64,000 nucleotides of DNA from an uncultured delta proteobacterium (GCA_963815145.1 CAWFFS010000010.1:178860-242859); one strand, 5' to 3'. Shown: positions 20,156-44,270, numbered from the stretch's first letter. Notes: generated from the letters alone by a model not told the origin. Made by a program: numbers and translations.

Positions 20156-21298
20156 TCACAGACTTACAGTAAAAAGATTTTCAGACATCTTCTTGATTTT
20201 ATTAATATTTATATCCACTCCGAGTCCGACACCCATTAAGGGGTATGCCTTTCCCCCATAGCCAAATGATACATCACTGTCAGTAATATTTTCAGCCAGA
20301 AGCAGATTGTCATATGACCCGTCATAATAAACCGAGTCATTTGAAAGCAGGTTGAGTATACGCCCTGCAGACGACAGCAGTCCTGATTCCCCAAGCTGGC
20401 AGCCTATCTGGAATTTCATTTTTGAGTTCCGGATATAATTAATCATCGAAAGTGAACGCCTCAACCCGCCGCACTTTGAAACCCTTATATTTATCATCTG
20501 GTAATGCCTGTTTTCATTCAAAAGATATAAATCATCAAGGGTGCAGGCTGACTCATCTGCCATAAGATCTATATTGTATTTTTTTGTTTCACTGCTCAGT
20601 TTCTCGATATCGGGGTCTTCCGGAGACATCGGCTGCTCAAGGATTTTTACTTTATAATCGTTTATCAGCTCTATATGCCTTAGGCCTGTTTCATATGTCC
20701 ATACCCCGTTTACATCGGCCTTCAGGTCATACCCATCATGAAAAATCCTGTCCACCGCAGTGAGAAGCATCTGGTTATGAGAATAATCTCTTCCCAGTTT
20801 AAGTTTCAGTTTATTGATGCCCAGGCTTTTTATCTTCCTGCATACATGATTCACCAGTTCCTCCGTCCCAAGCGGAATAGCGGCGCCATAACTGATGGAA
20901 TCGGTGTAATAATCCTTTGCGAACAGATCCAGCACCCGTTTTTTTTCAGATCTTGCATAGGCATCCAGTAAGGACATTTCCAGTGCGCATATGGAGGCAT
21001 TCATTCCTCTTGTGGAGGGAAGAGCATCGATCAGGCGCCAAATCTGATCCACAGTCTCCAATTCCCATGGGAAATCTTCTCTGCCTGTCAGATACCTGAT
21101 GTTTTCTTCTGCAGTTTCCAGGGTCTCACCGGTTACATAGGGCCTCGGAGCACCCTCTCCGCAACCTAATACTTCTCCTTTTTCATTGACCAGAATTACT
21201 ACAATATTCCTGACCCATAACCGTTTCCTGAGTGAATGTGAAAATTCTCCTGCGAAAGGCAGAATGACCCTTGCGATAATTGCTTTTTTAATTCGCAT
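20156..21298 (-). CDS. enolase-superfamily enzyme, MLE subgroup (dipeptide epimerase / N-acylamino-acid racemase / OSBS-like)
   Basis: Catalytic and metal motifs in order: 'KLKLKLG' (KxK), 'DVNGVW', 'ILEQPM', 'LMADES', 'NIRVSKCGG'. Confidence 0.75.
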   Translation of the reverse strand: MRIKKAIIARVILPFAGEFSHSLRKRLWVRNIVVILVNEKGEVLGCGEGAPRPYVTGETLETAEENIRYLTGREDFPWELETVDQIWRLIDALPSTRGMNASICALEMSLLDAYARSEKKRVLDLFAKDYYTDSISYGAAIPLGTEELVNHVCRKIKSLGINKLKLKLGRDYSHNQMLLTAVDRIFHDGYDLKADVNGVWTYETGLRHIELINDYKVKILEQPMSPEDPDIEKLSSETKKYNIDLMADESACTLDDLYLLNENRHYQMINIRVSKCGGLRRSLSMINYIRNSKMKFQIGCQLGESGLLSSAGRILNLLSNDSVYYDGSYDNLLLAENITDSDVSFGYGGKAYPLMGVGLGVDININKIKKMSENLFTVSL

Positions 21299-23300
21299 TT
21301 AAAAACGGGCTCCCCGGATTGTTTTGAACATCCTGCGGATGAACGGGCAGATCAATAATGAATTTTGCCCCTTCATTCACTTTACTTTTCACCTCTATCG
21401 TTCCGCAATGGTCCTGTATATTCTGGTGAACAATGAAAAGTCCCAGCCCTGTCCCGCTGTGATCCGTGCTCTTATATTTTGTTGAAAAGTATGGATCGAA
21501 TATTTTATTGAGCAGGTTCTCCGGTATCCCTTCACCACTGTCCTCAACTATTATGCGGATACCTAGTCCGTTTTTCATTTCTGCGTTTCTTTTTGTGGTT
21601 ATTTTTATCAATCCGTGTTCAGGTGTAAATTCCACTGCATTGGAGAGGAGATTTAATATCACCTGTTTGATTTTTTCGGAATCAATCCATACCTCTTTTA
21701 TCAACGGATCAAAATCCTTTTCTACCCTGATCTTTTTAACATTGCTCTTTGGAGAAACAAGAAGAACCATCTTTGCTATTATTTCATGCAGATTATTTGA
21801 TTCAAACCTGGATTCTCTGGTATTTACCAGATCAAGAAGCTCGGAAATCAGGTCATTGACCCTCTCTGTTTCCTCAAGGGCAATCTTGTGAAAATTTACC
21901 CTGTATTCCTCATCATCCAGTTTATAGGGCAGCAACTGTATGAATGTACCGATGGCTGTCATGGGGTTTTTGATTTCATGTGCCAGCCTTGCCGCCAGAT
22001 CACCTAAAAACGCCAGCTTTTCGGCTCTGCTCAAGAGTGCGTGAGAGCGCTTGAGTTCCAGCATCTGTTCCTGAAGCTGCCTGTATAGCCTGGCATTTTC
22101 AATGGCTATCGCTATCTGTGGTGAAAAAATTTCCAGGGTCCGGCGTGTTTCTATTGGCACACCATCCACTTCAAGGGAATCTGTCGCAATAACACCAATA
22201 ACCTTTGCCCGTGTGATCAGGGGGACTACGTGGACGGCACGGGACTTTCCATAGCTCAGTACTATGTTCTCTTTTCGAAGACTTGAGTTATTAACATCCG
22301 GGATGTATTCCGCTTTCCCTGAGTTGGTGACCCTTACGAGCATGTTGTTGACCCTGTGCAGGGGTATCTGATATTTCATTATTTCATCAGGGATTTCACC
22401 GTCGAACCCTGTTGCATGAAGATATTCAAGACAGCCTTGCTGCCCATTTACAAGGAGTATCAACGCCCTTCGTATCCTGCACACATTTGACAATGTGTTC
22501 ATTATTACTGTTAAGAGATCATCCAGATTCAATACTGAAAGGATAGCCTTGCCTGTCTCCTGTATGGCCTGGAGCTGTTTTATTTTATTGTTCAGGTCGA
22601 CATTAAGCGTGTTTACTTCTTCAAATTTTTGTTCAATGACCTGTTTGTCTCTTTCCATCTCTTTGATAGTCTCATTGAGCACTGATTTGGATGAAAAGAA
22701 TCTCGAAAAAAATATTTTAACATTGTTCTGAGAAGACCATTTCAGATGATACTCGCAATAGGGATCACCATTGAAAAAACATCTCTTTTCTTCTAGGGAT
22801 ATGGGCGAACCTCCCCAGATGAGCGGAATGTAGCTGTATGATCCCTGGTTATAAAGGCATATGTCCTTTGAAACCTCCATCCCCGGTGTCCAGTGAAGCC
22901 TCACAACAGCGTTGTTATTGTTTAATTCGACAAGTTGAACCTTTTTATTTCTGTTCCATTTGTCATTAATCCGCTGCAGGTTTTTTAAACCTTTTTTGAT
23001 CGTCCAGAAGGCCTTTACTATTATCCTCTGACCGTATCCGAGACGAAAGTTCTCAGCTGCGTATCTCGCTATATGAAACGCGGTCAGATCATCCTTAAAA
23101 AATATTCTTGCCCTTTCATATAATTTTGCTGCAATCGAGCACGAAATCCAGTTTGCTTCATCACATAAGTAGGATTCTGCATCAGGAAGCGAATCTATTT
23201 CAGGATCAAGGTCCTTCAGCATGTATTCCAGATCGCCGCTGTTAGTTTTTACATAGTTGATAATGGCCCTGGAATTTATGCAGCTGACTTCTTTTTTCAT
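21288..23300 (-). CDS. sensor histidine kinase (unknown N-terminal sensor domain, coiled coil, GAF, HisKA, HATPase)
   Basis: H-box 'LAARLAHEIKNPMTAI'. ATPase 'NLLSNAVEFTP...VEDSGEGIP...GTGLGLFIV'. GAF-like 'LDDLLTVIMNTLSNV...VVPLITRAKVIGVIATDS'. Confidence 0.85.
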   Translation of the reverse strand: MKKEVSCINSRAIINYVKTNSGDLEYMLKDLDPEIDSLPDAESYLCDEANWISCSIAAKLYERARIFFKDDLTAFHIARYAAENFRLGYGQRIIVKAFWTIKKGLKNLQRINDKWNRNKKVQLVELNNNNAVVRLHWTPGMEVSKDICLYNQGSYSYIPLIWGGSPISLEEKRCFFNGDPYCEYHLKWSSQNNVKIFFSRFFSSKSVLNETIKEMERDKQVIEQKFEEVNTLNVDLNNKIKQLQAIQETGKAILSVLNLDDLLTVIMNTLSNVCRIRRALILLVNGQQGCLEYLHATGFDGEIPDEIMKYQIPLHRVNNMLVRVTNSGKAEYIPDVNNSSLRKENIVLSYGKSRAVHVVPLITRAKVIGVIATDSLEVDGVPIETRRTLEIFSPQIAIAIENARLYRQLQEQMLELKRSHALLSRAEKLAFLGDLAARLAHEIKNPMTAIGTFIQLLPYKLDDEEYRVNFHKIALEETERVNDLISELLDLVNTRESRFESNNLHEIIAKMVLLVSPKSNVKKIRVEKDFDPLIKEVWIDSEKIKQVILNLLSNAVEFTPEHGLIKITTKRNAEMKNGLGIRIIVEDSGEGIPENLLNKIFDPYFSTKYKSTDHSGTGLGLFIVHQNIQDHCGTIEVKSKVNEGAKFIIDLPVHPQDVQNNPGSPFLNAN

Positions 23301-23320
23301 ATAACGATGCCTTTTACAGA

Positions 23321-24916
23321 TTACAGATTTAAAACCCTGCTGCTCCTCCGGCCTGATAATTCGTCTTTTTTCGCCTTTCTCAGGATGGAAAGAAAACCCC
23401 TCAATAAATCCAGGTTATCTCCATTTACTTTAATGATATTTCTCTCCCCGTCTTTATAGCAACTATCGGGTATAACAGGGTCAAATAATGATGATGCCGG
23501 CAGTCTGAAAAACGGTACCATTTTCAAAAAAGCCGTCTGTAATTTTTCTGTATTATTGGACAGCCTGTAAATTTTGTCGATATAGGACATGACCGTCTCA
23601 AAGGTAAGATCCCTGGATGGTTTCCTCACAACATTCTGCCCGAATACCGTATCATCATCAAATACTACATCAGGTAATGATATCGCCAGGTCATGTATTT
23701 TTGTTTTGGGATAAACATGACATTCTCCGACCTTGAAGACATGCCCTGCCCTGCCGCTGAACTCCGTGAGTTTTTTTGCAAAATTATAGCTTTCTGCCAG
23801 ATCGTCTTCCGTATCGCCAGGATAACCCGCAATCATAAAAATCATCAGGGGAATTTCATATTCGGCCGCCTTTTTGAATATGGCCAGAGTATTGCTCAGA
23901 TATCTTTCATAATGCGCCCGGTCTTTTATCTTATTCATTCTGCGCAGGGTATTATAGCTTGCGGATTCGAAACCAAGCACAAGGGTTCCGCATACATCAT
24001 GGATTTCCGGGATTATCTCGGGATCAAAAACATCACATCGTGTTTCAAAGTGGATCTTCATTCCGAGTTTCCTGATAGCCGGCACAAGATCAAAGGACCT
24101 GAACAATGCATCGCACACTACTATGTCTTTTGCCCTGCAATGATCGGCAAGATTTCTCAGATCCGACTCAATAATCTCTGATGGTACAGCTTTTCTGGAA
24201 GGTCTGATATAATCTTCCATGCAAAAATTACACCTGTAAGAGCATCCCCGGCTGAAAGAATACGGAAGGACATCATAGGCCGCAGGATTTTTTAACAGGG
24301 TCAGGTCGAGGGGCGCCTTGTCATTTAAATCGAATCTTTCGCTATTATGTGTAAAAACCAAGGTTTCATTATCCTTCCATACAAGTCCGGATATTTTTTT
24401 ATCTCTGGGATCTCTGCCGCTCGTCAGTCTTTCAATTATCTTCAGCGCAGGTATCTCACCCTCTCCCCTTACAATAAGATCAACCGCATCCGTCCTTTGG
24501 AAAATATCTTCATAATAAAGCGTAGGAAAATATCCGCCCAGAAATAAAAATATTTCAGGGTTGTTCTTTTTAATAATTTCACACAAATGAACACTTTCTT
24601 CTGCCTGTGATATGGCAGTACATGAAATGCCGATTCCTGCGGGTTTGAGCAGTGATATATCCTCAAGTAATTCATCATATATTCTATCTTTACCACTTTT
24701 GTTTAAGGGAAGCCCATAATCCATTGGAATTGATATAACTTTTATATCGATATCAGGATTATTCTTTTTGACATAACCGGCAATTTCCAGAAGTGGAAGA
24801 GGATAAGCCGGGACATACATACCTATGTTTTTTGAAACCGGTTCCAGAAGCAGTATCAAAATATACTCCTTTCCTTTATAGGGGTTATCTCCATGACGAT
24901 CAGACATGCCTTTCAA
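23321..24916 (-). CDS. B12-binding domain-containing radical SAM protein
   Basis: The N-terminal Rossmann-like B12-binding region precedes 'SRGCSYRCNFCMED' (CxxxCxxC). Confidence 0.8.
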   Translation of the reverse strand: MKGMSDRHGDNPYKGKEYILILLLEPVSKNIGMYVPAYPLPLLEIAGYVKKNNPDIDIKVISIPMDYGLPLNKSGKDRIYDELLEDISLLKPAGIGISCTAISQAEESVHLCEIIKKNNPEIFLFLGGYFPTLYYEDIFQRTDAVDLIVRGEGEIPALKIIERLTSGRDPRDKKISGLVWKDNETLVFTHNSERFDLNDKAPLDLTLLKNPAAYDVLPYSFSRGCSYRCNFCMEDYIRPSRKAVPSEIIESDLRNLADHCRAKDIVVCDALFRSFDLVPAIRKLGMKIHFETRCDVFDPEIIPEIHDVCGTLVLGFESASYNTLRRMNKIKDRAHYERYLSNTLAIFKKAAEYEIPLMIFMIAGYPGDTEDDLAESYNFAKKLTEFSGRAGHVFKVGECHVYPKTKIHDLAISLPDVVFDDDTVFGQNVVRKPSRDLTFETVMSYIDKIYRLSNNTEKLQTAFLKMVPFFRLPASSLFDPVIPDSCYKDGERNIIKVNGDNLDLLRGFLSILRKAKKDELSGRRSSRVLNL

Positions 24917-25883
24917 GCAGAGGCCGTAAAACCGGTCCTGCTGTACCTCTTATTGTTGCAGGCGCCCTGAATGATCGGGAACCGCACAATTGAGGATATT
25001 TTTTCCACTGGTACCATTGCTCCGGATAGTGATATATGAACTGCTCAAGCACCTTAAGGACTGCCTCGCCTGTTGTAATGGAATTACTGCTGCTAATCAT
25101 CCTCAGCATATCATCATGGGAATACACTATCAATTCATACTTGGAAAGGCTGTATCTGTGAATTACTCCAAATAACACTTCGGCACCCGATCTTTTCTGC
25201 ATTATATTAATAGTCCTGTCCAGGCCTGTAATCTGCCCGAGAAATGTTGTCCTTTTCCTGTCCGAAGGCCTCCACTCATCTATCTCGTCACACTGGGTCA
25301 CAAGGACACGGTTTTCCTTTAATTCCGATATGGCATGATGAAATACATTTCCGGATTTTTCAGCATCAATCATTTTTATATTATATTTTTCGGCCTGGGC
25401 AAAAACTTTTTTTCGCAATTGAGCGGTCTTAAATCTGGCTATCATTGATATATTTATATTTTTAATTGCAAGCAGTGTCGGGATAAACTCAATGGCTCCG
25501 TAATGACCGGTTATGAGAATAACGCCCCTGCCATTTAAAAGGGCTTTTTTTATCAGGGCCAGATCGTTACATATAACACTGGAAGACAGGAAGCCTGTAG
25601 CCTTTCTTTTGCTTTCAAAGGCAATATAAAGCTTCTCATAATAATGATAAAGGATTCCATTAAAAACCCTTTTGAGAGTCTTATCCCTGTCATCATCGTT
25701 CCTTATCATACGCATGACCTCAAGGACTGATTTTTCTATGACCTGTTTTTCACGGTTCTTTATGAAGAAATAGATCCTGCCCAAAAAAAATATATAAAAC
25801 CTTGCCAGTTTCCATCCAAACACCATATAAAGAAAAATGTTAACTCTCGCCTGTAAAAAATTACTCAATCTAAAAATTCTCAT
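24900..25883 (-). CDS. lysophospholipid acyltransferase family protein (LpxL/HtrB-like lipid A biosynthesis acyltransferase fold)
   Basis: N-terminal TM helix. 'ITGHYGAIE' (HX4D/E acyltransferase motif). C-terminal 'YPEQWYQWKKY' resembles the LpxL 'PEQY.W.H.R.K' tail. Confidence 0.7.
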   Translation of the reverse strand: MRIFRLSNFLQARVNIFLYMVFGWKLARFYIFFLGRIYFFIKNREKQVIEKSVLEVMRMIRNDDDRDKTLKRVFNGILYHYYEKLYIAFESKRKATGFLSSSVICNDLALIKKALLNGRGVILITGHYGAIEFIPTLLAIKNINISMIARFKTAQLRKKVFAQAEKYNIKMIDAEKSGNVFHHAISELKENRVLVTQCDEIDEWRPSDRKRTTFLGQITGLDRTINIMQKRSGAEVLFGVIHRYSLSKYELIVYSHDDMLRMISSSNSITTGEAVLKVLEQFIYHYPEQWYQWKKYPQLCGSRSFRAPATIRGTAGPVLRPLLERHV

Positions 25884-25936: not shown

Positions 25937-25952
25937 GTCAATATTTATGCCA
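25937..25952 (-). promoter_or_regulatory. candidate sigma-54 (-24/-12) promoter for the acyltransferase operon (imperfect)
   Basis: The minus strand reads TGGCATaaataTTGAC. The -24 TGGCAT and the spacing are correct, but the -12 element is GA instead of the conserved GC. It lies 55 nt upstream of the start at 25883. Confidence 0.3.
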
Positions 25953-26110
25953 AAACATTTTTTACTTGTATTTATTTATTCCTGAGATCCTCTGCATACT
26001 GAGCAACATTATATCTATTTAATTTTGTTAGCTTTTACCAAAGATCAAGAATTCATATGCTTTTATAAGTTATTCAGCCCCGGAGATTTTTTTTAAAAAA
26101 TGGGATAAAA

Positions 26111-26149
26111 TGCACAAATTTTTGTGCACGCTGCACATTTTTATGTGCA
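26111..26149. promoter_or_regulatory. tandem palindromic operator/UAS pair (TGCACA-N6-TGTGCA x2)
   Basis: TGCACAaattttTGTGCA (26111-26128) and TGCACAtttttaTGTGCA (26132-26149), with centres 21 bp apart. The same arrangement recurs at 38038-38077. Confidence 0.55.
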
Positions 26150-26358
26150 AAAAACCTGATTTTTTTATAATATGAAGATTAGCTGTTCTATAATTTTTGA
26201 TTTTTTTAATCATATAATTTGCGTTCAAGTTAGAATTAGCCTAGATTATTGTTTAAGTTAATTGTATACAGTCAAAATGTATTTAAAAAATGTTTAATTC
26301 CTACCTGAACCCAGCAATTGCATTTGATTATTTTTTTTACCGGAAAGGAAAACTTTTA

Positions 26359-27699
26359 ATGGGTAATAAAGCCTCCATACTTGTTGTCGATGATGAATAC
26401 GGCGTTCTGCAATCATTTAAAATGGTATTGGGCTCGGAATATAATATATTTCTCGCCGAGACAGGTGAAAAGGCGGTAAGAATATTTTCCGAAAACGCAA
26501 TTGACCTGATATTGCTTGATATCATCCTGCCGGATTCCAATGGCATTGATCTATTGAAAAAATTCAAGGAAACCGATCCTGATACAGAGGTCATCATGGT
26601 AACAGCTGTAAAAGAGGTAAAAACTGCCGTAGAAGCCATGAGATTCGGTGCATATGATTATATTGTCAAACCTTTTGTTGTTGAAGATATTATCAACATA
26701 ATAAACAGGGTACTGGAAAAGCACCGTTTGCAGAGGGAGGTTACATATCTCAAGGATGAACTGGAAAGATTTCAGCCATTTGAAAAGATTGTGGGGCAGG
26801 ACCCTAAGATGCTGGAAATTTTTGAATTGATATCCACCATAGCCGAAAGCGATGGAGCAGTATTGATACAGGGAGAAAGCGGCACGGGCAAAGAGCTGGT
26901 AGCAAGGGCGGTCCACAGGCTTGGTGCAAGAAAAAATCAACCCTTTGTGGTCATTAATTGCGCGGCAATTCCGGCAACTCTTATGGAGAGTGAAATTTTC
27001 GGCCATAATAAAGGGGCTTTTACCGGTGCATCGGCATTAAAGATAGGAAAACTGGAAATAGCCAACAAGGGGATTGTATTTTTAGATGATGTGGATACAC
27101 TTGACATAGGAATGCAGGCAAAATTGTTAAGGGTCATCCAGGAGAAAGAATTCGAAAGACTTGGCAGCACCAAGCTTATCCGGATAAATGTTCGTTTTAT
27201 AGCAGCATCAAATAAAAACCTTAAACACCTTGCCGAAACAGGACTGTTTCGTGAGGATCTTTTTTACAGGCTTAACGTATTTCCAGTTGAAATTCCGCCC
27301 CTCAGAGAGAGACGGGGAGATATCCGTCTATTGCTCGATCATTTTCTGAACCTTTATTCCAAACAGAATGGAAAACCCTTAAAGAAATTCTCAAACAGTG
27401 CAGCAAAGCTCCTTACAGATCATTATGAATGGCCGGGTAATGTTCGTGAGCTTCAAAACCTTGTGGAACGACTTGCTACCATTACCAGGGGAAATGTGAT
27501 CTTCCCTAAAAACATTTCGAATTTCAGCATCAATAAAAAGGAAATCAGGGATGTACCTCTGAAAGATGCTGTCGATATCTTTGAAAAAGAATTTATAGAT
27601 GATGTATTGAAACGGGTAAGAGGCAGCAAGAAGGATGCCGCACGTATCCTGGGAATACATCGTAATACGCTTCAAAAGAAATTGACTGGCCAGACGTAA
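26359..27699 (+). CDS. sigma-54-dependent Fis-family response regulator (NtrC-type bEBP)
   Basis: REC 'ILVVDDEYG...DLILLDIILPDSNG'. AAA+ Walker A 'GESGTGKE'. 'GAFTGA' sigma-54 contact loop. C-terminal HTH 'AARILGIHRNTLQKKL'. Start taken at 'MGNKASILVVDD'. Confidence 0.92.
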   Translation: MGNKASILVVDDEYGVLQSFKMVLGSEYNIFLAETGEKAVRIFSENAIDLILLDIILPDSNGIDLLKKFKETDPDTEVIMVTAVKEVKTAVEAMRFGAYDYIVKPFVVEDIINIINRVLEKHRLQREVTYLKDELERFQPFEKIVGQDPKMLEIFELISTIAESDGAVLIQGESGTGKELVARAVHRLGARKNQPFVVINCAAIPATLMESEIFGHNKGAFTGASALKIGKLEIANKGIVFLDDVDTLDIGMQAKLLRVIQEKEFERLGSTKLIRINVRFIAASNKNLKHLAETGLFREDLFYRLNVFPVEIPPLRERRGDIRLLLDHFLNLYSKQNGKPLKKFSNSAAKLLTDHYEWPGNVRELQNLVERLATITRGNVIFPKNISNFSINKKEIRDVPLKDAVDIFEKEFIDDVLKRVRGSKKDAARILGIHRNTLQKKLTGQT

Positions 27700-37113: not shown

Positions 37114-37252
37114 TGCGTAAGGTTGGTAAAAGAAAGTAAATTTAAATGTTATTATCAGATATTTACATTATGAGTCAAGCTCAAAACCCTCTTACCCTCA
37201 CGACAATTTTTATTAATTAGTGACCATCCAAAAATGTTCGTTTTTTGCTAAA

Positions 37253-37339
37253 AGCTATCAGCCATCAGCATTCAGCTGTCAGATTAAAGTATAAAAATCA
37301 AAGGCTTGGATGATCGATAATCGCTGACCGCTGAAAGCT
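37253..37339. repeat. imperfect inverted repeat built from TCAGC-periodic units (orphan hairpin element)
   Basis: AGCTaTCAGCcaTCAGCatT (37253-37272) against the reverse complement of 37319-37339, AGCTtTCAGCggTCAGCgatT. It is flanked by similar ~22-nt direct repeats CCATCCA(A/G)AAAT..TTTTT at 37225 and 37341. Confidence 0.35.
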
Positions 37340-37455
37340 CCATCCAGAAATTGTCTTTTTCTTGATGGACACTGCTAATTTTACAAGGCAAATGAAATGG
37401 ATTAAATCCATTCCGGCACTAAATAGCCTCCGGAACGGATTCGTATTGAAGTTTA

Positions 37456-37746
37456 TTACTCTTTTTCAACAAAGATCAGGTCTTTTATTAATTCAAACTT
37501 TTTCTGACCGATACCCTTCACTTTCATTAAATCCTCTATCGTTTTAAATTTTCCATTTTTTTCTCTATATTCAATTATTCTCTCTGCATATTTTTTCCCG
37601 ATTCCTTTCAGCTTGATTAGCTCCTGAACGGTTGCCTTGTTAAGGTCAACCTTTACTGCATCGACAGCCTGCACAACTCCTGCTGCTGCAAATACGATAA
37701 CAATACACAAAACAATAATTCTTCTCAATTTAAGCATCTCCGTCAT
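37456..37746 (-). CDS. ComEA-family helix-hairpin-helix DNA-binding protein
   Basis: AAGGAGG RBS lies 8 nt upstream of the ATG at 37746. N-terminal TM/signal segment. Tandem HhH 'VDLNKATVQELIKLKGIGKKYAERII...EDLMKVKGIGQKKFELI'. Confidence 0.8.
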   Translation of the reverse strand: MTEMLKLRRIIVLCIVIVFAAAGVVQAVDAVKVDLNKATVQELIKLKGIGKKYAERIIEYREKNGKFKTIEDLMKVKGIGQKKFELIKDLIFVEKE

Positions 37747-38037
37747 TGACAAAGCCTCCTTTTTCTAAAAGGTTGATAAAATCCATCACAGAAATACTAT
37801 GCCTGTAATGGTAACATTTTGATGTTTTTTTAATTTTTAAAAGGAAAGCAATTATGCTAATTACAATTTTGGTGCCAATCCTGGAGTCTCGTTACAAAAA
37901 TTAAAAACAAAGTATAGCCACTTCAAATATACCCCATAATATCAGACATATACAATTTACCTTAACCATAATAATTTATATAGTTCACTGAACCGGTGAT
38001 TTTTTTTAAAAAAAAAACGTAGAATTTCTTAGCTACT

Positions 38038-38077
38038 TGCACATATTTATGTGCATCAATGCACACAAATATGTGCA
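38038..38077. promoter_or_regulatory. second tandem TGCACA-N6-TGTGCA palindrome pair (candidate bEBP UAS)
   Basis: TGCACAtatttaTGTGCA (38038-38055) and TGCACAcaaataTGTGCA (38060-38077), with centres 22 bp apart. They lie about 100 bp upstream of the -24/-12 element at 38154-38170. Confidence 0.6.
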
Positions 38078-38153
38078 AAGAATCCAAATATTTTTTGCGT
38101 GTTTTTAAGCAGGTTATTTGTTGCGCACAAAATTATTTTCATATAAAATCGCT

Positions 38154-38170
38154 TGGGAATGTTTTTTGCA
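38154..38170 (+). promoter_or_regulatory. sigma-54 (-24/-12) promoter
   Basis: tGGGAATGTTTTTTGCAt. GG (38156-57) and GC (38168-69) have the canonical spacing, the -12 element is TTGCA, and there is a G at the consensus +7 position. AGGAG RBS and the ATG (38199) follow about 30 nt downstream. Confidence 0.6.
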
Positions 38171-38198
38171 TACCATCCCTTCATAGGAGCGCTACAGA

Positions 38199-38735
38199 AT
38201 GAGTGATGCAGACAATATCCAGAGAAATGATGAGATAATAAAAATATTAAGAGCCATAACACCATTAAGTCAGATAAGAGATGAGGATATCAGAGGACTC
38301 CTGAAATCCAGCAAAATGATAAAGTATGAACCAAACGAAGTAATTATCTCTGAAGGTGATTACAGCTGCTGGATTTACTTTCTGATAAAGGGAGAAGCAG
38401 GAATTCAAAAAGAAGGTGAAATAATAAATACCCTGACGCGATGTGGAGATATTTTTGGTGAAATGGGCATAATCGATAATTCTCCACGGTCAGCCACAAT
38501 TGTTGCAGTCACCAGTGCAGTATGTCTGGCAATTGACACATCATATGCTGAAAAATTAAGAGGTAATGAGAAAAATGCCTTTAACTCAATTTTATACAGA
38601 ATTTTTTCAGAAATTCTTACTGAAAGACTCAGACGTATGGATGAAGAGCTTATCAGGATAAAAAATGAAAATTACCGTCTTATAACCGAACTTGAAGTGA
38701 TAAAATCCGGTGTGAAATTGGAGATACTCCCCTGA
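38199..38735 (+). CDS. cyclic nucleotide-binding domain protein with C-terminal coiled coil (no DNA-binding domain)
   Basis: cNMP phosphate-binding cassette 'FGEMGIIDNSPRSATIVA' and beta-roll 'VIISEGDYSCWIYFLIKGE'. The C-terminus 'RLRRMDEELIRIKNENYRLITELE' is coiled-coil rather than HTH. Confidence 0.8.
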   Translation: MSDADNIQRNDEIIKILRAITPLSQIRDEDIRGLLKSSKMIKYEPNEVIISEGDYSCWIYFLIKGEAGIQKEGEIINTLTRCGDIFGEMGIIDNSPRSATIVAVTSAVCLAIDTSYAEKLRGNEKNAFNSILYRIFSEILTERLRRMDEELIRIKNENYRLITELEVIKSGVKLEILP

Positions 38736-38736
38736 A

Positions 38737-38943
38737 ATGATACCTAATTGCACTAAATGCGAGCATTATTATATAACCTGGGATAAAAACCATCCATATG
38801 GATGCAGGGCCATGAATTTTAAAAGCAGCGAACTGCCATCAGTAGCGGTCCGTGAAAATTCCGGAATGAACTGCCTTCAATTCAAAACCAAAAAGCAGAA
38901 GAAAAAACCTGGCAGCACATATACGAAAACTAAACTTATCTGA
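38737..38943 (+). CDS. small Cys-containing (zinc-ribbon-like) protein with Lys-rich tail, unknown function
   Basis: 68 aa, 'CTKCEHYYITWDKNHPYGCRAMNFKS...MNCLQFKTKKQKKK'. The start lies 1 nt after the preceding stop, suggesting translational coupling. Confidence 0.5.
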   Translation: MIPNCTKCEHYYITWDKNHPYGCRAMNFKSSELPSVAVRENSGMNCLQFKTKKQKKKPGSTYTKTKLI

Positions 38944-39049: not shown

Positions 39050-39976
39050 ATGGCTGATTTAATTTCACGATCTGAATATGAAAAGTACGCGATAAGAAAA
39101 CCTGATATGAGTATCTTTCCCGGGGTAAAGGGGCGTGAACCAGTCATGACCTACCTTAACGACAAACTGTTTCCAGGCGTACCCTATAATATCGATCTTA
39201 GCTTTATAACTTCAGTGCCTGAACCACACATTTTTGAACATGCAATCGATTATGACAGAATTTATATTTTCTGGAGCACGGACCATAAAGAGCCCCAAAA
39301 TCTAGGCGCCACCATCGAGTGCTATATTGGCGGTCAGAGAACCGAGTTCAGCAATACAACCAGTCTTTTTATCCCAAAAGGGATGAGACTGGGGCCGATA
39401 AACTGGTTGAAAGTGAATCGCCCACATGTCATGATGGAGTTTATTCTTGGCACCGGTGACAGTTCCGTACTGACAGGCAGCGGCATTTTTGATCCCAAAG
39501 ACGGGCTACCCGAAAAGACCGATGAAACAGACTATGAACAGTATGTCATCCGGAGCCCCCTGAGGGAAGCCGGTGACCCGCGTCAGGGGCCGTACAGGAT
39601 GTATCCTACCATGACATACATGAGCTCAAGACAGTGCAAGGCTAACAACAACTACATAGAATTCGGATATATCTGGGATAAAGTTGATCCGCCCCTGCCG
39701 AGAATGACACACTATAACTTTGATGAAATCGTTTTGCATTTCGGCAGCGATCCTGATAATCCAACCGACCTCGGCGGTCATATGAGATTCGATGTAGGAA
39801 ATGACAAACTTGAATTTGATACCAACTACTGTATCTGGCTCCCTAAAGGAGTTACTCACGGCCCGCTGATGTTTTATGATGTCAAGAAGCCTTTTATAGA
39901 AATGGCTATTATGCTGAATGCCGGTACAGTTGAAGAATACAGGGATGATTCCAACTTTGAAACGGATATAGAATAA
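39050..39976 (+). CDS. two-module cupin-like protein (N-module degenerate), unknown function
   Basis: C-half 'THYNFDEIVLHFGSDPDNPTDLGGHMRFDVGNDKLEFDTNYCIWLPKGVTHGPL' and N-half 'FEHAIDYDRIYIFWSTDHKEPQNLGATIECYIGGQRTEFSNTTSLFIPKGMRLGPI' both align to the proteins at 44626 and 45123. Confidence 0.5.
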   Translation: MADLISRSEYEKYAIRKPDMSIFPGVKGREPVMTYLNDKLFPGVPYNIDLSFITSVPEPHIFEHAIDYDRIYIFWSTDHKEPQNLGATIECYIGGQRTEFSNTTSLFIPKGMRLGPINWLKVNRPHVMMEFILGTGDSSVLTGSGIFDPKDGLPEKTDETDYEQYVIRSPLREAGDPRQGPYRMYPTMTYMSSRQCKANNNYIEFGYIWDKVDPPLPRMTHYNFDEIVLHFGSDPDNPTDLGGHMRFDVGNDKLEFDTNYCIWLPKGVTHGPLMFYDVKKPFIEMAIMLNAGTVEEYRDDSNFETDIE

Positions 39977-40041: not shown

Positions 40042-41970
40042 TCAGGCATTAACTGCAGCCCTGGTATAATTTTCCAGGAAATACCCTAAAGATTCGGATT
40101 GACTCATTGTAAGGTCTCTGAATTGAATGCCCCTTCTCCTTACTGACACATCGGTCAGGTCCCTGGAATTATTCAATACTATATCCGATACGGTCCTGCA
40201 TGGAATATTTTCCAGAACAAACCTTTTATCAGATGTCATAATAGAGTATTTGCCGTTTTCAACTATCTGATTTCTAATACTGTAATACTTGAATGACATC
40301 CCTGATTTGCTAATGTCAAGCAAAGTGTGTCTTTTTTCAGGCCTGGAACTGGAAACGACAAAGATATCCTCTTTTACTTTAAACCTGTCTCCGCGCCTTC
40401 TATCCTTATTACTGGCACTAAGAACATTCTTTATAGCTATTGCCAGTGTGTTTGTCCGGACAGGTTTTGTCAGGATTTCGCATATCCCTTTATTTTTTAG
40501 ACTTTCCTGATCCACTCTATTATTAAAACCTGTGCAGATGATAACAGGTGTATTTTTTCTGATCTCATGAATTTTTAAGGCAAGGAGATCACCTGTCATC
40601 CTAGGCATTGTCATATCGGTAATTACCAGGTCAAATGCATCCGGATCATTCTCAAATACCTCAAGGGCACGGTTACTTTCAGTAAAGGCCTCGACCCTGT
40701 ATCCAAGCTGCTCCATCATAATCTTCATTGTATCTGCAATCATATATTCGTCATCCACAAGCATGATGTTTTCTTTGCCGCAGGGAATATACTCATTATC
40801 CAGAACGGGCTTGTCATCTATTACAGCATCAATCACTGGAATATAAACGGTAAATACGGTTCCAGAGCCGACTCTGCTGTCTACTTTGATTATACCCCCA
40901 TGGCTTTTTATAATCCCATGCACCACTGACAGACCCATACCTGTACCTTTTCCTGGCTCCTTTGTCGTAAAATAGGGATCAAATACCCGCTTGATTACTT
41001 CTTTTGATATCCCATGCCCTGTATCAGATATGGTGAGTTCAGCATAAGGTCCCTGGGGCAGATCACTAAATGATGTTATTGGATCTACACCTATAACCTT
41101 TGTAGTTACATTTACCCGGATTACTCCGCCGGAGATCATTGCGTGCGCTGCATTTGTACAGAGATTTACCATAACCTGGTTTAACTGGGTCGGATCACCC
41201 ATAACAACAAGCTTGGAATCTGGAATATTTTTTCTTATTTCAATATCTGACGGCAAACTTGATCTGAGAAGCTTCAGTGATTCATTAATACTTGAAATAA
41301 AATCGATAGGTTTTTTTTCTGCATCAGTAATTCTTGAAAAACTCAGGAGACGGCTGACCATCTCTTCTGCTCTGCAGCTAGCTGTGATTATATTATTCAG
41401 GTATTGCCTTGTCGGACTGTCCTTCTGGGTTGTTCTTATGGCAAGCTCGGTATTGCCTATTATTATGCCCAGAGTGTTATTGAAATCATGTGCCATGCCC
41501 CCTGCCAAGGTCCCTATCGCTTCCATTTTCTGAGACTGCCGAAGCTGGAGTTCCAGTTGTTTTTTTTCCGATTGAATTACTCTCTTCTCATCTTTCGATC
41601 TCTTATGCCTTATCGCATTTTCCACCCTTATCATCAGTTCATCAGCGTCGAAAGGTTTTCTGATATAGTCGGAAGCACCTTTTCTTATTGCTTTTATCGC
41701 TGAATCCATTGTAGTGTCGCCGGTCATTATAATAAATATGGTGTCAAGGTCCAGATCCATGACAGTCTCCATAATCTGAAATCCGTTCATCACAGGCATC
41801 ATAACATCCAGGATAGCCAGATCGAACTCTGTCTGATGCAGAAGTTCGACTGCCTCCAGGGCATCATTGGTTACTGTTATGTTATACTCCCTTCTGGTCA
41901 GCACAGCTTTTACACTTGCAGCCACAACAGTATCATCATCAACAATTAATATTTTTACGCTCGGATCCAT
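40042..41970 (-). CDS. hybrid sensor histidine kinase/response regulator with C-terminal PilZ domain (REC-HisKA-HATPase-REC-PilZ)
   Basis: REC1 'ILIVDDD...DLAILDVMMPVMNG'. H-box 'GGMAHDFNNTLGII'. ATPase 'DTGHGIS...GTGMGLSVV'. REC2 'IMLVDDEYM...DLVITDMTMPRMTG'. PilZ motifs 'RRRGDR' and 'DISKSG'. Confidence 0.85.
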   Translation of the reverse strand: MDPSVKILIVDDDTVVAASVKAVLTRREYNITVTNDALEAVELLHQTEFDLAILDVMMPVMNGFQIMETVMDLDLDTIFIIMTGDTTMDSAIKAIRKGASDYIRKPFDADELMIRVENAIRHKRSKDEKRVIQSEKKQLELQLRQSQKMEAIGTLAGGMAHDFNNTLGIIIGNTELAIRTTQKDSPTRQYLNNIITASCRAEEMVSRLLSFSRITDAEKKPIDFISSINESLKLLRSSLPSDIEIRKNIPDSKLVVMGDPTQLNQVMVNLCTNAAHAMISGGVIRVNVTTKVIGVDPITSFSDLPQGPYAELTISDTGHGISKEVIKRVFDPYFTTKEPGKGTGMGLSVVHGIIKSHGGIIKVDSRVGSGTVFTVYIPVIDAVIDDKPVLDNEYIPCGKENIMLVDDEYMIADTMKIMMEQLGYRVEAFTESNRALEVFENDPDAFDLVITDMTMPRMTGDLLALKIHEIRKNTPVIICTGFNNRVDQESLKNKGICEILTKPVRTNTLAIAIKNVLSASNKDRRRGDRFKVKEDIFVVSSSRPEKRHTLLDISKSGMSFKYYSIRNQIVENGKYSIMTSDKRFVLENIPCRTVSDIVLNNSRDLTDVSVRRRGIQFRDLTMSQSESLGYFLENYTRAAVNA

Positions 41971-42062: not shown

Positions 42063-44270
42063 TCAGTTAATGACCGGTAGCATTATTTTAAAACATGTCC
42101 CTTTGAGCGTATTATCATCCAGTATGACTGTTCCGCCCATTTTTTTGATCAGTTCATGGACGATCAGTAATCCTAATCCGTCATGATCAGCCTTTGTTGT
42201 TGACTGTTTTTTAAATAGATTCGGCCTTAAATGATCCGGAAAACCGTGACCTTCATCAGAAATTGATATTTCTACTTTTTTTGCATCGTCTCCGGAACTA
42301 TTTGTTTTCACATCACCAGCCTGAGAGCCTTTTTTGTATCGAACATTTACCTTAATACTTCCTCCCAGAGGCATTGCTTCTATGGAGTTATTGATAAGAT
42401 TAATCAACACCTGCCTGAAGGCATCTTTATCGATCATTACATCCGGAATATCTTCATCACCTTCGAAATATATATTTATTTCCGAGCTATCTACACGGCT
42501 GTTTTTTATAAGCAGGATAGTATCTGAAATAATGCTGTACAGACTCGAAACTGTCTTTACCGGTTTTTTTTCAGGGGAAGACGACTTGAATTCTTTCAAC
42601 AATTTGCCGATGCGGTCCAGTTCATCATCTATTATCCTGATCTCATCGTTCTCGACATTTATATCATCCAGCTTCATGTTGAGGACCTTCAGATAATTCT
42701 TTATTGCGCTTAGCGGGTTATTGATTTCATGGATAAGCTTTCTGGTCTTTATAGAATTTGTTTCAGTGTTTTTTTCTGCTGCATCTTCGCTGTTTTTCTG
42801 CGATTCTTCGTAAACTATATAAGGCATCACTAAATCCATGAAATACAGAACTCTTTCAATGCCCTTTTTATTGACAGTTCGCCAGGTATTATTGACTCCA
42901 AGAACAATAACCCCTGTAATCTTATCTTCATTCATCAAAGGCAGGCAAAAGAGCCCGTCCATATTTATGAGGTTTGCTATTTGAAGGTCAAAAAGAGCCG
43001 GATCGGTGTTATTAACTCTATCAAGGGAGTTTATTTCTATCTCCATCAAAAAGGAGTTAACAATTGAACTGTCTTTAACATCCATTGAGACTGTCAGATC
43101 GCCAGAGAGTAATGCGCTTTCAGGTAGACCGAGTTTTATACCATCAAGAGATCTGTTTTCGATGTTATGCCTGAAATAAAATATTTGGTCCATTCCGGTA
43201 AGGAAATGTATGGCCTTCCCAATATTGTCGAATCGTTCTTTTTCATCGGCAGATTTACGAACCCGGGCAGCCAGCACCGACATTAATGAACCACCTCCTA
43301 CGTCATTCAGGAGTATAACTTTTTGTTCATCTTTAGATTGATATGCTATTTCACTGTTATCACTAGATATTTCCACACCAAGATTCAACAGACGATTCTG
43401 GGCTTTCAACTCCGCGATAGAGATTAGCTCGTCTATCAGGCTATCTTTTAAATTGAATAATTCTCTTCCTGTTTCCAGATGCTTTGAACGATCCTTTTCA
43501 TCCTGGGTATAGACCATGCCTGAAAAATAGACCAGTTTTACCAGTTTATTTGCCTGCTTTATCTTTTTTATCGGGTGGTGGTGATAAAAAATTGCATCTG
43601 AGATAAAAGGAAAAGAGGCCCAGTGCTCAACCATATGAGCCCCCAGAAAACAGTGATTTATACCCATGGCATGATCTTCCGATGACACCTGATTTAAATA
43701 ATCAAAGCCCTCTGAAGAACTGAGCGCGCCATATTGCACAGGAAATCTGTTTGACAGGACAATAGAACCTACATTATGGATAAGTGCGGCAATATATGCA
43801 GGAAATGAAGAATAGCCTACTGCCTCCGAGATTAAAGCCGAGAGATGTGCGGCCTTGAGGGAAATAAAAAAATGGTTGTTTCTACAGGGTCCAATGCTGT
43901 CTGAATCCGATAAGACCAGAGGGTGAATCAATAAATCTTTGATCAGCTGAACGGAAACGTCCTTTCCAATTATTTCTATTGCATCATCGAAGCTGGCTAT
44001 ATTTCTATTGCCGGAAATAAGAGTCGAATGCGTTAAATTCAGGATATTAAAGGCAAGTGAAGGACTTACAGCAATAAAATTATGGATATCTTCGGTAATT
44101 TCACGGAGATCGCCAGATTTGAGGACAGCGGAACGGATTTCCGTTTCAACAGGAAGAAACGGGGGCCTATCAATAATAGAGTCAATAGATCCTTTGATTA
44201 ACCTATTATAATTTTTCCCGCGATAATATGATGAGTTCCGTTGGGTCATCCGCAATATCTTCATCTTCAT
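42063..44270 (-). CDS. HDOD domain, GAF-like domain, histidine kinase
   Basis: N-terminal HDOD-like 'LPVETEIRSAVLKSGDLREITEDIHNFIAVSPSLAFNILNL...ALIHNVGSIVL'. H-box 'LIHEINNPLSAIKNYL'. ATPase 'DEGHGFP...DGLGLLIVHE'. Confidence 0.75.
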   Translation of the reverse strand: MKMKILRMTQRNSSYYRGKNYNRLIKGSIDSIIDRPPFLPVETEIRSAVLKSGDLREITEDIHNFIAVSPSLAFNILNLTHSTLISGNRNIASFDDAIEIIGKDVSVQLIKDLLIHPLVLSDSDSIGPCRNNHFFISLKAAHLSALISEAVGYSSFPAYIAALIHNVGSIVLSNRFPVQYGALSSSEGFDYLNQVSSEDHAMGINHCFLGAHMVEHWASFPFISDAIFYHHHPIKKIKQANKLVKLVYFSGMVYTQDEKDRSKHLETGRELFNLKDSLIDELISIAELKAQNRLLNLGVEISSDNSEIAYQSKDEQKVILLNDVGGGSLMSVLAARVRKSADEKERFDNIGKAIHFLTGMDQIFYFRHNIENRSLDGIKLGLPESALLSGDLTVSMDVKDSSIVNSFLMEIEINSLDRVNNTDPALFDLQIANLINMDGLFCLPLMNEDKITGVIVLGVNNTWRTVNKKGIERVLYFMDLVMPYIVYEESQKNSEDAAEKNTETNSIKTRKLIHEINNPLSAIKNYLKVLNMKLDDINVENDEIRIIDDELDRIGKLLKEFKSSSPEKKPVKTVSSLYSIISDTILLIKNSRVDSSEINIYFEGDEDIPDVMIDKDAFRQVLINLINNSIEAMPLGGSIKVNVRYKKGSQAGDVKTNSSGDDAKKVEISISDEGHGFPDHLRPNLFKKQSTTKADHDGLGLLIVHELIKKMGGTVILDDNTLKGTCFKIMLPVIN

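Follow-up and report, generated by a model that had tools for sequence, protein, structure and literature searches.

A tandem palindrome pair as a likely bidirectional NtrC-type enhancer between divergent sigma-54 promoters in an uncultured delta proteobacterium

The binding half-site of NtrC begins with TGCAC (TGCAC...GTGCA), and at glnAp2 of enteric bacteria tandem palindromic sites, each for one NtrC dimer, share a face of the helix and precede a sigma-54 promoter by more than 100 bp. For ZraR, binding to a single intergenic enhancer activates sigma-54 promoters on both sides, and the two-component operon of ZraR itself is transcribed from one of them. In Desulfovibrio vulgaris, the NtrC-type regulator DVU1419 recognizes an 18-bp palindrome positioned 140-190 bp upstream of sigma-54 promoters (Rajeev 2011; Kazakov 2015, PMC4641369); its regulon includes its own kinase/regulator operon, and its targets comprise the envelope stress gene DVU0036 and a non-coding RNA (PMC4641369).

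We analyzed a pair of palindromes at 38 kb in a 64-kb stretch of DNA (64,000 nucleotides; hereafter the window) from an uncultured delta proteobacterium and compared it with these systems. The likeness to NtrC at glnAp2 extends to the tandem arrangement of palindromic dimer sites that face the same side of the helix, the sigma-54 promoter more than 100 bp away, the TGCAC half-site in the same orientation, and the predicted binder, a REC-AAA+-HTH_8 protein whose recognition helix starts with RNTL. In contrast, the glnAp2 sites are 17 bp long and 32 bp apart, whereas those described here measure 18 bp (TGCACA-N6-TGTGCA) and follow each other at 21-22 bp; moreover, the targets are unconnected with nitrogen, and the predicted enhancer serves divergent promoters. 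The architecture, with a kinase gene in the target operon, is that of ZraR at zraP-zraSR of E. coli. By sequence, the nearest named relatives of the predicted binder are AtoC (438 bits) and ZraR (358 bits), yet both ZraR and AtoC (atoDAEB, E. coli) differ from the present system in binding motif and targets, and the present sensor is a kinase with a GAF domain. DVU1419 shares the hexamers, but in everted order (TGTGCA-N6-TGCACA versus TGCACA-N6-TGTGCA), and its helix-turn-helix (LLGITQQALSAKIKKL) is unrelated to the one found here (ILGIHRNTLQKKL): For these two reasons we rejected it as an orthologue and do not assign it to the same regulon; its targets differ as well. Literature searches for the motif in combination with sigma-54, and for ComEA in combination with sigma-54 or such an activator, returned nothing relevant. 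The mechanism is therefore not what is new, as it is textbook; the regulon, located in uncultured relatives of sulfate reducers, is one for which our literature searches found no earlier description.

A first-pass annotation of the window had reported matching palindrome pairs at 38 kb and 26.1 kb, and on re-reading their positions and sequences were exact (Table 1). The phasing of about two helical turns that it described was measured as 22 bp from start to start at 38 kb and 21 bp at 26 kb; at the former distance, the two 38-kb sites would face the same side of the helix. A pattern scan of the 64 kb yielded exactly four perfect copies of TGCACA-N6-TGTGCA, arranged as two pairs with 21-22 bp between starts at two intergenic sites, where base composition predicts about 0.003 by chance. 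With up to two mismatches, seven matches were found in the window versus 2.03 expected, and seven were reached in none of 100 shuffles, which upholds the earlier statement that the pattern is not a chance one. The 38-kb pair sits inside a 446-bp gap that separates two divergent gene sets.

Table 1. Coordinates of the features discussed, counted from the first letter of the window; functions of regulatory elements are predictions.
Feature	Position	Strand	Description
Enhancer (UAS) site 1	38038..38055		TGCACAtatttaTGTGCA; exact palindrome; predicted site for one activator dimer
Enhancer (UAS) site 2	38060..38077		TGCACAcaaataTGTGCA; exact palindrome; starts 22 bp after the start of site 1 (two helical turns)
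Sigma-54 promoter, first-pass annotation	38155..38170	+	GGGAATGTTTTTTGCA; predicted start near 38181; predicted to drive the cNMP-binding gene operon
Sigma-54 promoter, missed by first-pass annotation	37862..37877	-	TGGCACCAAAATTGTA; predicted start near 37851; predicted to drive the ComEA-like gene
ComEA-like secreted helix-hairpin-helix DNA-binding protein	37456..37752	-	98 aa as listed; start probably ATG 37746
Terminator-like hairpin	37404..37442	-	Directly 3' of the ComEA-like gene; -21.8 kcal/mol, z-score -4.5
Cyclic-nucleotide-binding-domain (cNMP-binding) protein	38199..38735	+	178 aa; Pfam cNMP_binding 2.5e-17; no DNA-binding domain
Cysteine-rich protein	38737..38943	+	68 aa; start adjoins the stop codon of the preceding cNMP-binding gene
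308-aa protein	39050..39976	+	Probably last gene of the plus-strand operon
Second enhancer pair	26111..26149		TGCACAaatttTTGTGCA (26111-26128) and TGCACAtttttaTGTGCA (26132-26149), 21 bp apart
Sigma-54 promoter	25937..25952	-	TGGCATAAATATTGAC; 159 bp from the 26-kb pair; predicted to drive the acyltransferase operon; -12 TTGA
Target operon, four genes	20156..25883	-	Genes overlap or abut; Pfam matches
LpxL-like acyltransferase	24900-25883	-	Operon gene
B12-binding radical-SAM enzyme	23321-24916	-	Operon gene
GAF-HisKA-HATPase sensor kinase	21288-23300	-	Operon gene; probably the activator's partner
Enolase-superfamily enzyme	20156-21298	-	Operon gene
NtrC-family response regulator, sigma-54 activator	26359..27699	+	REC, AAA+ with GAFTGA, HTH_8; predicted binder of the four palindromes

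On the plus strand, the promoter layout proposed earlier was recovered: A GG-N10-GC element (GG 38156-38157, GC 38168-38169) with TTGCA at -12 lies 78 bp past the second palindrome, about 100 bp away from the middle of the pair, and is followed by AGGAG (38185-38189) and the ATG at 38199. Its description as a clear promoter stood with respect to conservation in orthologues but not with respect to sequence, as the element carries three mismatches to the consensus used for scanning (TGGCACN5TTGCW), all of them in the -24 hexamer (weak GGGAAT), and is only a moderate match. Likewise, the proposed enhancer-dependent sigma-54 geometry was supported by the orientation of promoters in other genomes (see below) but was incomplete: A further predicted promoter, 37877-37862(-), had been missed. 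It shows one mismatch to the consensus; 160-161 bp separate it from the pair, and about 110 bp from the ComEA-like gene downstream. At -12 it reads TTGT, without the canonical C. To rank these elements we used a position matrix that was trained on the pair-linked promoters of other genomes, with the window excluded, and scored 127,956 window positions. The promoter at 25952(-), next to the 26-kb pair, ranked first (score 20.0) and 37877(-) second (13.4), while 38155(+) ranked 13th (8.8). By arithmetic, the chance that the top two positions both land in the four 330-bp outward flanks of the pairs is about 1e-4. Both top-ranking promoters, 37877-37862(-) and 25952-25937(-), have perfect -24 hexamers (TGGCAC and TGGCAT, respectively), combined with TTGT and TTGA at -12. 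An RpoN-box protein (rpoN) was not found within the 64-kb window.

The three elements of the 38-kb site are those that evolution has retained. Six orthologues of the cNMP-binding protein (71-79% identity) were looked up, and the seven ComEA/cNMP intergenic regions were aligned (alignment A2). The six orthologous loci share the gene order PP2C/Cds6_C, ComEA, gap, cNMP-binding gene, 68-aa ORF and, in most, the 308-aa gene. Mean column identity across the seven intergenic regions is 51%, and only three invariant islands were found: The first, T.ATACAAT.T...TGCCA, is the minus-strand promoter (TGGCAyN5ATTGTAT in its own direction, with TGGCAyN5ATTGTA conserved in the seven orthologues); the second, TGCACA..TT..TGTGC, then 3-5 bases, then TGCACA..A...TGTGC, contains the two palindromes, whose TGCACA..TGTGC core is invariant across all seven regions; and the third, GG..TGTTTTTTGCATA, is the plus-strand promoter of the first-pass annotation. 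Degenerate half-sites, TGTGCt and TGTGCc, occur in L113-L116. The distance between the ComEA-side promoter and the pair is 138-169 bp, with five of the seven genomes at 159-161 bp. On the cNMP side this distance ranges from 45 to 187 bp, and the promoter always stands 27-29 bp before the ATG; here, GGnnTGTTTTTTGCATA is invariant in front of the cNMP-binding gene in all seven loci. Neither the promoter islands nor the palindromes accompany L122, a homogeneous comparison being limited there by lower identity (63%) and another gene neighbourhood. A MAFFT alignment of the two window intergenic regions with each other mis-registered the palindromes and was left out of the results.

The two window sites have a further sequence in common. 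CCGGnGA followed by T8 and then A6-A10 occurs at 37993-38017 and at 26080-26100, 38 and 24 bp from the respective pair, in both cases between the palindromes and the minus-strand promoter. Similar tracts of T-runs and A-runs are present in some orthologues of the 26-kb locus (L110, L086 and L066), and the tract was considered as a conserved bend or IHF element and rejected as such, since the orthologues of the 38-kb site do not conserve it. The hairpin of the tract, at 37985-37999, is weak, and there is no gene there to terminate. The tract could be a bending element or a coincidence.

To follow the motif beyond the window, we scanned one genome per species in 185,579 species for two perfect palindromes separated by 2-14 bp. 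The scan gave at least 111 loci, from which regulon size and membership can be read only incompletely, as perfect palindromes were required. At least 56 assemblies, 46 of which are labelled Desulfobacterota among those listed, have pairs with a spacing of 20-24 bp, and 20 assemblies hold the pair at two to five loci among the matches listed. The start-to-start distance is 21 or 22 bp in 80 of the 115 pairs listed, with smaller groups at 20 bp and 30-32 bp. The family logo reads aTGCACA-W6-TGTGCAt, with at least 90% A/T at the inner four positions of the spacer and with A(-1) and T(+19) on either side of the palindrome. All of these positions had been left free in the search, and in sequence terms such constraint is binding-site-like. 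Palindrome pairs or arrays spaced 30-32 bp were seen in Bacteroidota, in one Nitrospirales genome with five loci, and in some Desulfobacteraceae (L002, L005, L009, L013, L015, L021, L027, L029, L038, L044, L046, L048, L059, L060, L072, L076, L092, L096 and L099); these are almost never near a sigma-54-like promoter and are therefore probably part of another system.

A relaxed sigma-54 seed, [TC]GG[CT]A[CT]-N5-[TAC]TG, was then applied within 330 bp of the pairs spaced 20-24 bp. Among the matches listed, 82 seeds point outward and 3 inward, at 50-205 bp from the pair; at least one promoter accompanies 70 of 93 pairs, and promoters on both sides were found at 10. Among the matches listed, 46% of these promoters have A at -12, 34% have C and 16% have T. 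Since A or T prevails, the TTGT and TTGA of the window represent the norm for the regulon. Roughly two thirds of the enhancer-linked sigma-54 promoters among the matches listed thus lack the canonical C at -12; TTGAA recurs before single-receiver genes and TTGTA before ComEA-like genes. Single-domain receiver proteins are the most frequent other targets behind pair-linked promoters among the matches listed, and further targets elsewhere are PilZ-domain proteins, a GAF-MshEN-T2SSE ATPase, T2SS protein C and an HDOD protein. In the closest complete relative (L064), an adenylate/guanylate cyclase is a target among the matches listed. Our impression from these annotations is that the targets share a theme of second-messenger signalling together with cell-surface or secretion functions. 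Several pair-linked promoters have no plausible ORF within 300 bp downstream (L071 at ~5066(-), L087, L104, L081 and L026); the one in L071 reads TGGCACAGATATTGTA and is located 159 bp from the pair. Such promoters may drive small RNAs or very small proteins.

The candidate binder is encoded next to the 26-kb pair. The product of 26359-27699(+) matches Sigma54_activat (PF00158, 2.4e-66), Response_reg (PF00072, 1e-26) and HTH_8 (PF02954, 2.1e-11) and is the only GAFTGA protein in the window. The claim of a single regulon gains from this arrangement: Both window loci share the motif, and the only sigma-54 activator gene of the window adjoins the 26-kb copy. Orthologues of the activator (61-83% identity over the full length) adjoin a pair in at least 15 genomes, where they are usually divergent from the acyltransferase/radical-SAM/kinase operon. 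The helix LG(I/L)HRNTL is invariant in the pair-adjoining activators, including those with only 51% identity from a Methylomirabilota MAG and an unclassified MAG, and unrelated activators in pair loci carry other helix sequences. In an alignment with 1NTC, the crystal structure of a non-binding NtrC domain, the RN of this helix falls on the two arginine/asparagine positions that were changed to alanine there. The protein reaches none of the curated cutoffs of named families (AtoC 438.4 versus 714; NtrC 413.7 versus 558.6; PEP-CTERM-box regulator 389.1 versus 502.6; ZraR 357.9 versus 760), and its best 120 homologues all stem from uncultured organisms and bear generic names. Falling below the cutoff also led us to reject the PEP-CTERM-box regulator PrsR/PrsK, which had been considered for the GAF domain of the kinase.

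In most of the orthologous 26-kb loci examined, the pair is kept between the acyltransferase and activator genes, and an outward promoter equivalent to 25952-25937(-) is likewise present in most; three loci (L042, L001 and L017) hold a single exact palindrome at the equivalent position. The gene order of the acyltransferase operon behind the promoter recurs in 10-15 other loci. For the activator gene itself, the matrix found no sigma-54 promoter in the window (best score -0.8), although the relatives L110 and L041 do have one. Upstream of the activator gene, TGAACCCAGCAATTGCA at 26307-26323(+), which has no GG and one extra spacer base, stands roughly where L110 and L041 carry TGGCAyGATGATTGA/T; judged by its sequence, it may be a decayed autoregulatory sigma-54 promoter.

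The ComEA-like protein was identified by Pfam HHH_3 (3.1e-26) and the NCBIfam ComEA repeat region (79.8 bits, cutoff 53.1), and in another Desulfatiglandales genome (L010) a ComEA homologue is likewise placed behind a pair plus TGGCACGCAAATTGAA. The stem of the hairpin that follows the gene (ATCCATTCCGGA/TCCGGAATGGAT) is conserved in five of six orthologues, L113 keeping only part of the 5' arm; with such a conserved hairpin directly behind it, the ComEA-like gene is probably transcribed alone. The next gene on the minus strand encodes the PP2C/Cds6_C protein. Upstream of it, a sigma-70-like promoter (AACTTGACTCA ... TCTGGTAAT, ~37180-37215(-)) is kept in all orthologues (alignment A3), so that the PP2C/Cds6_C gene seems to own an enhancer-independent promoter. 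Between the two genes, about 120 bp (37254-37373) are absent from all six orthologous loci and are 76% identical to L085:4832-4944, aligning in both orientations; because of this double alignment and the absence from the orthologues, the segment looks like a small inverted-repeat (MITE-like) insertion. On the plus strand, all orthologues, the distant L122 included, have the 68-aa ORF immediately behind the cNMP-binding gene. No Pfam or NCBIfam family matched the 308-aa protein; at 84-90% identity in L113, L114, L116 and L121, where it occupies the same position, it is more conserved than its neighbours. The cNMP-binding protein was itself considered as the binder of the palindromes and rejected for want of a DNA-binding domain. 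The plus-strand operon is directly followed by a convergent hybrid kinase gene, 40042-41970(-), whose product has two receiver domains and a weak PilZ-like C-terminus and which holds the same position in the orthologous loci; an HDOD-domain kinase is encoded next to it at 42063-44270(-).

Taken together, we consider it likely that 38038-38077 is a bidirectional NtrC-type enhancer that is bound by the product of 26359-27699 and drives both divergent sigma-54 promoters. The elements themselves, their conservation, the outward bias of the promoters and the co-occurrence with the activator gene are observed; binding, phosphorylation, looping and a sensed signal are what we infer for the following course of events. 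Each 18-bp palindrome would bind one dimer of the response regulator. Phosphorylation of the regulator would come from its partner kinase, for which the GAF-domain kinase 21288-23300 is the probable candidate. The bound dimers would nucleate an active AAA+ ring, and looping of the intervening DNA would bring this ring into contact with sigma-54 RNA polymerase in the closed complexes at the two divergent promoters, which would then be opened by ATP hydrolysis. Transcription from 38155-38170(+) would yield the cNMP-binding protein, the 68-aa protein and the 308-aa protein, and that from 37877-37862(-) would cover the ComEA-like gene alone. The pair at 26111-26149 would likewise serve 25952-25937(-) and thus the acyltransferase/radical-SAM/kinase/enolase-family operon. 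Since the likely partner kinase is encoded inside this target operon, it would be under positive feedback.

Two alternatives retain the enhancer but restrict it to one side. The pair might activate only 38155-38170(+), with the ComEA-like gene being expressed independently; the canonical TTGCA at -12, invariant in the orthologues, and the non-canonical TTGT of the minus-strand promoter would agree with this. We nevertheless find it improbable: The minus-strand promoter outscores its counterpart (13.4 versus 8.8, ranks 2 and 13), is equally conserved, and keeps its distance of 159-161 bp in five of seven orthologues, whereas the plus side drifts from 45 to 187 bp. Moreover, with A at 46%, T at 16% and C at 34%, TTGT/TTGA belongs to the majority within the regulon, and the ComEA homologue of L010 also follows a pair and a promoter. 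Hardly more credible is the converse, in which only the ComEA promoter responds to the pair and GGnnTGTTTTTTGCATA is kept for another reason, be it a sigma-70 element, a leader or a translation signal. Its appeal stems from the plus-strand -24 element, which is weak and contributes to three mismatches overall, from the variable distance to the pair, and from the position of GGnnTGTTTTTTGCATA just 27-29 bp before the ATG, where it could overlap other signals. However, GG and GC are invariant at exactly N10 in the seven orthologues, a sigma-70 scan gave no plus-strand match at GGnnTGTTTTTTGCATA, promoters flank the pair on both sides in 10 other cases among the matches listed, and the adenylate cyclase target in the close relative L064 fits the cyclic-nucleotide theme of the cNMP-binding gene.

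Other objections concern the palindromes rather than the promoters. They might be bound by a different protein, such as a paralogue of the activator or a classical repressor or activator, instead of the 26359-27699 product. Dozens of activators are encoded in such genomes, and 11 of the 20 multi-locus assemblies are without an activator-linked locus among the matches listed; Desulfobacteria, with 50-69 sigma-54 activators per genome (PMC12316311), possess the largest sets known, so that a paralogue encoded elsewhere could share or compete for the motif. We rate a different binder as very unlikely all the same: In at least 15 genomes the activator gene stands beside the pair, conservation of the HRNTL helix is confined to these activators, and the 82 outward versus 3 inward sigma-54 promoters among the matches listed point to an enhancer-binding protein and not to a sigma-70 regulator. 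Finally, the palindromes might be copies that stem from a dispersed repeat or mobile element devoid of any regulatory role. The identical pair in many genomes brings this to mind, and the first-pass annotation had named a dispersed repeat as one outcome that would speak against its reading; in our view its likelihood is negligible. The motif is present at two sites in 64 kb and at one to five loci per assembly among the matches listed, and the flanks beyond motif and promoters are dissimilar, both between the two window sites and between orthologues. The sites are always intergenic with oriented promoters and belong to no Rfam family. A repeat or RNA element was rejected accordingly, with no further copies in the window and Rfam matches at chance level only; few copies per genome, all intergenic, in at least 56 assemblies are the mark of a specific regulatory motif and not of a repeat.

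Returning to the bidirectional enhancer, its gain for the field is one of annotation and regulon mapping and not of a new principle: A single predicted enhancer serves two divergent promoters. Almost none of the sigma-54 activators of Desulfobacteria has an assigned motif or target set, and one of them would now, as predicted from sequence, gain a motif (aTGCACA-W6-TGTGCAt, twice, at 21-22 bp), a core operon with its likely partner kinase, and accessory targets. The many apparently functional sigma-54 promoters without a C at -12 are useful for promoter models in these phyla. More tentatively, and with the odds rather against so broad a reading, the pairs may mark an unrecognised two-component sigma-54 regulon that spans Desulfobacterota, with outliers in Methylomirabilota and Planctomycetota, and in which about two thirds of the promoters have a relaxed -12 element. 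If so, it would couple an envelope-lipid operon (LpxL-like acyltransferase, B12-radical-SAM enzyme and enolase-family enzyme) and a secreted ComEA-type DNA-binding protein to second-messenger proteins, namely cNMP-binding, adenylate cyclase, PilZ, HDOD and single-receiver proteins, along with MshE-type ATPases, and the relaxed -12 (TTGA/TTGT versus TTGC) would imply a different balance between silencing and activation of sigma-54 promoters.
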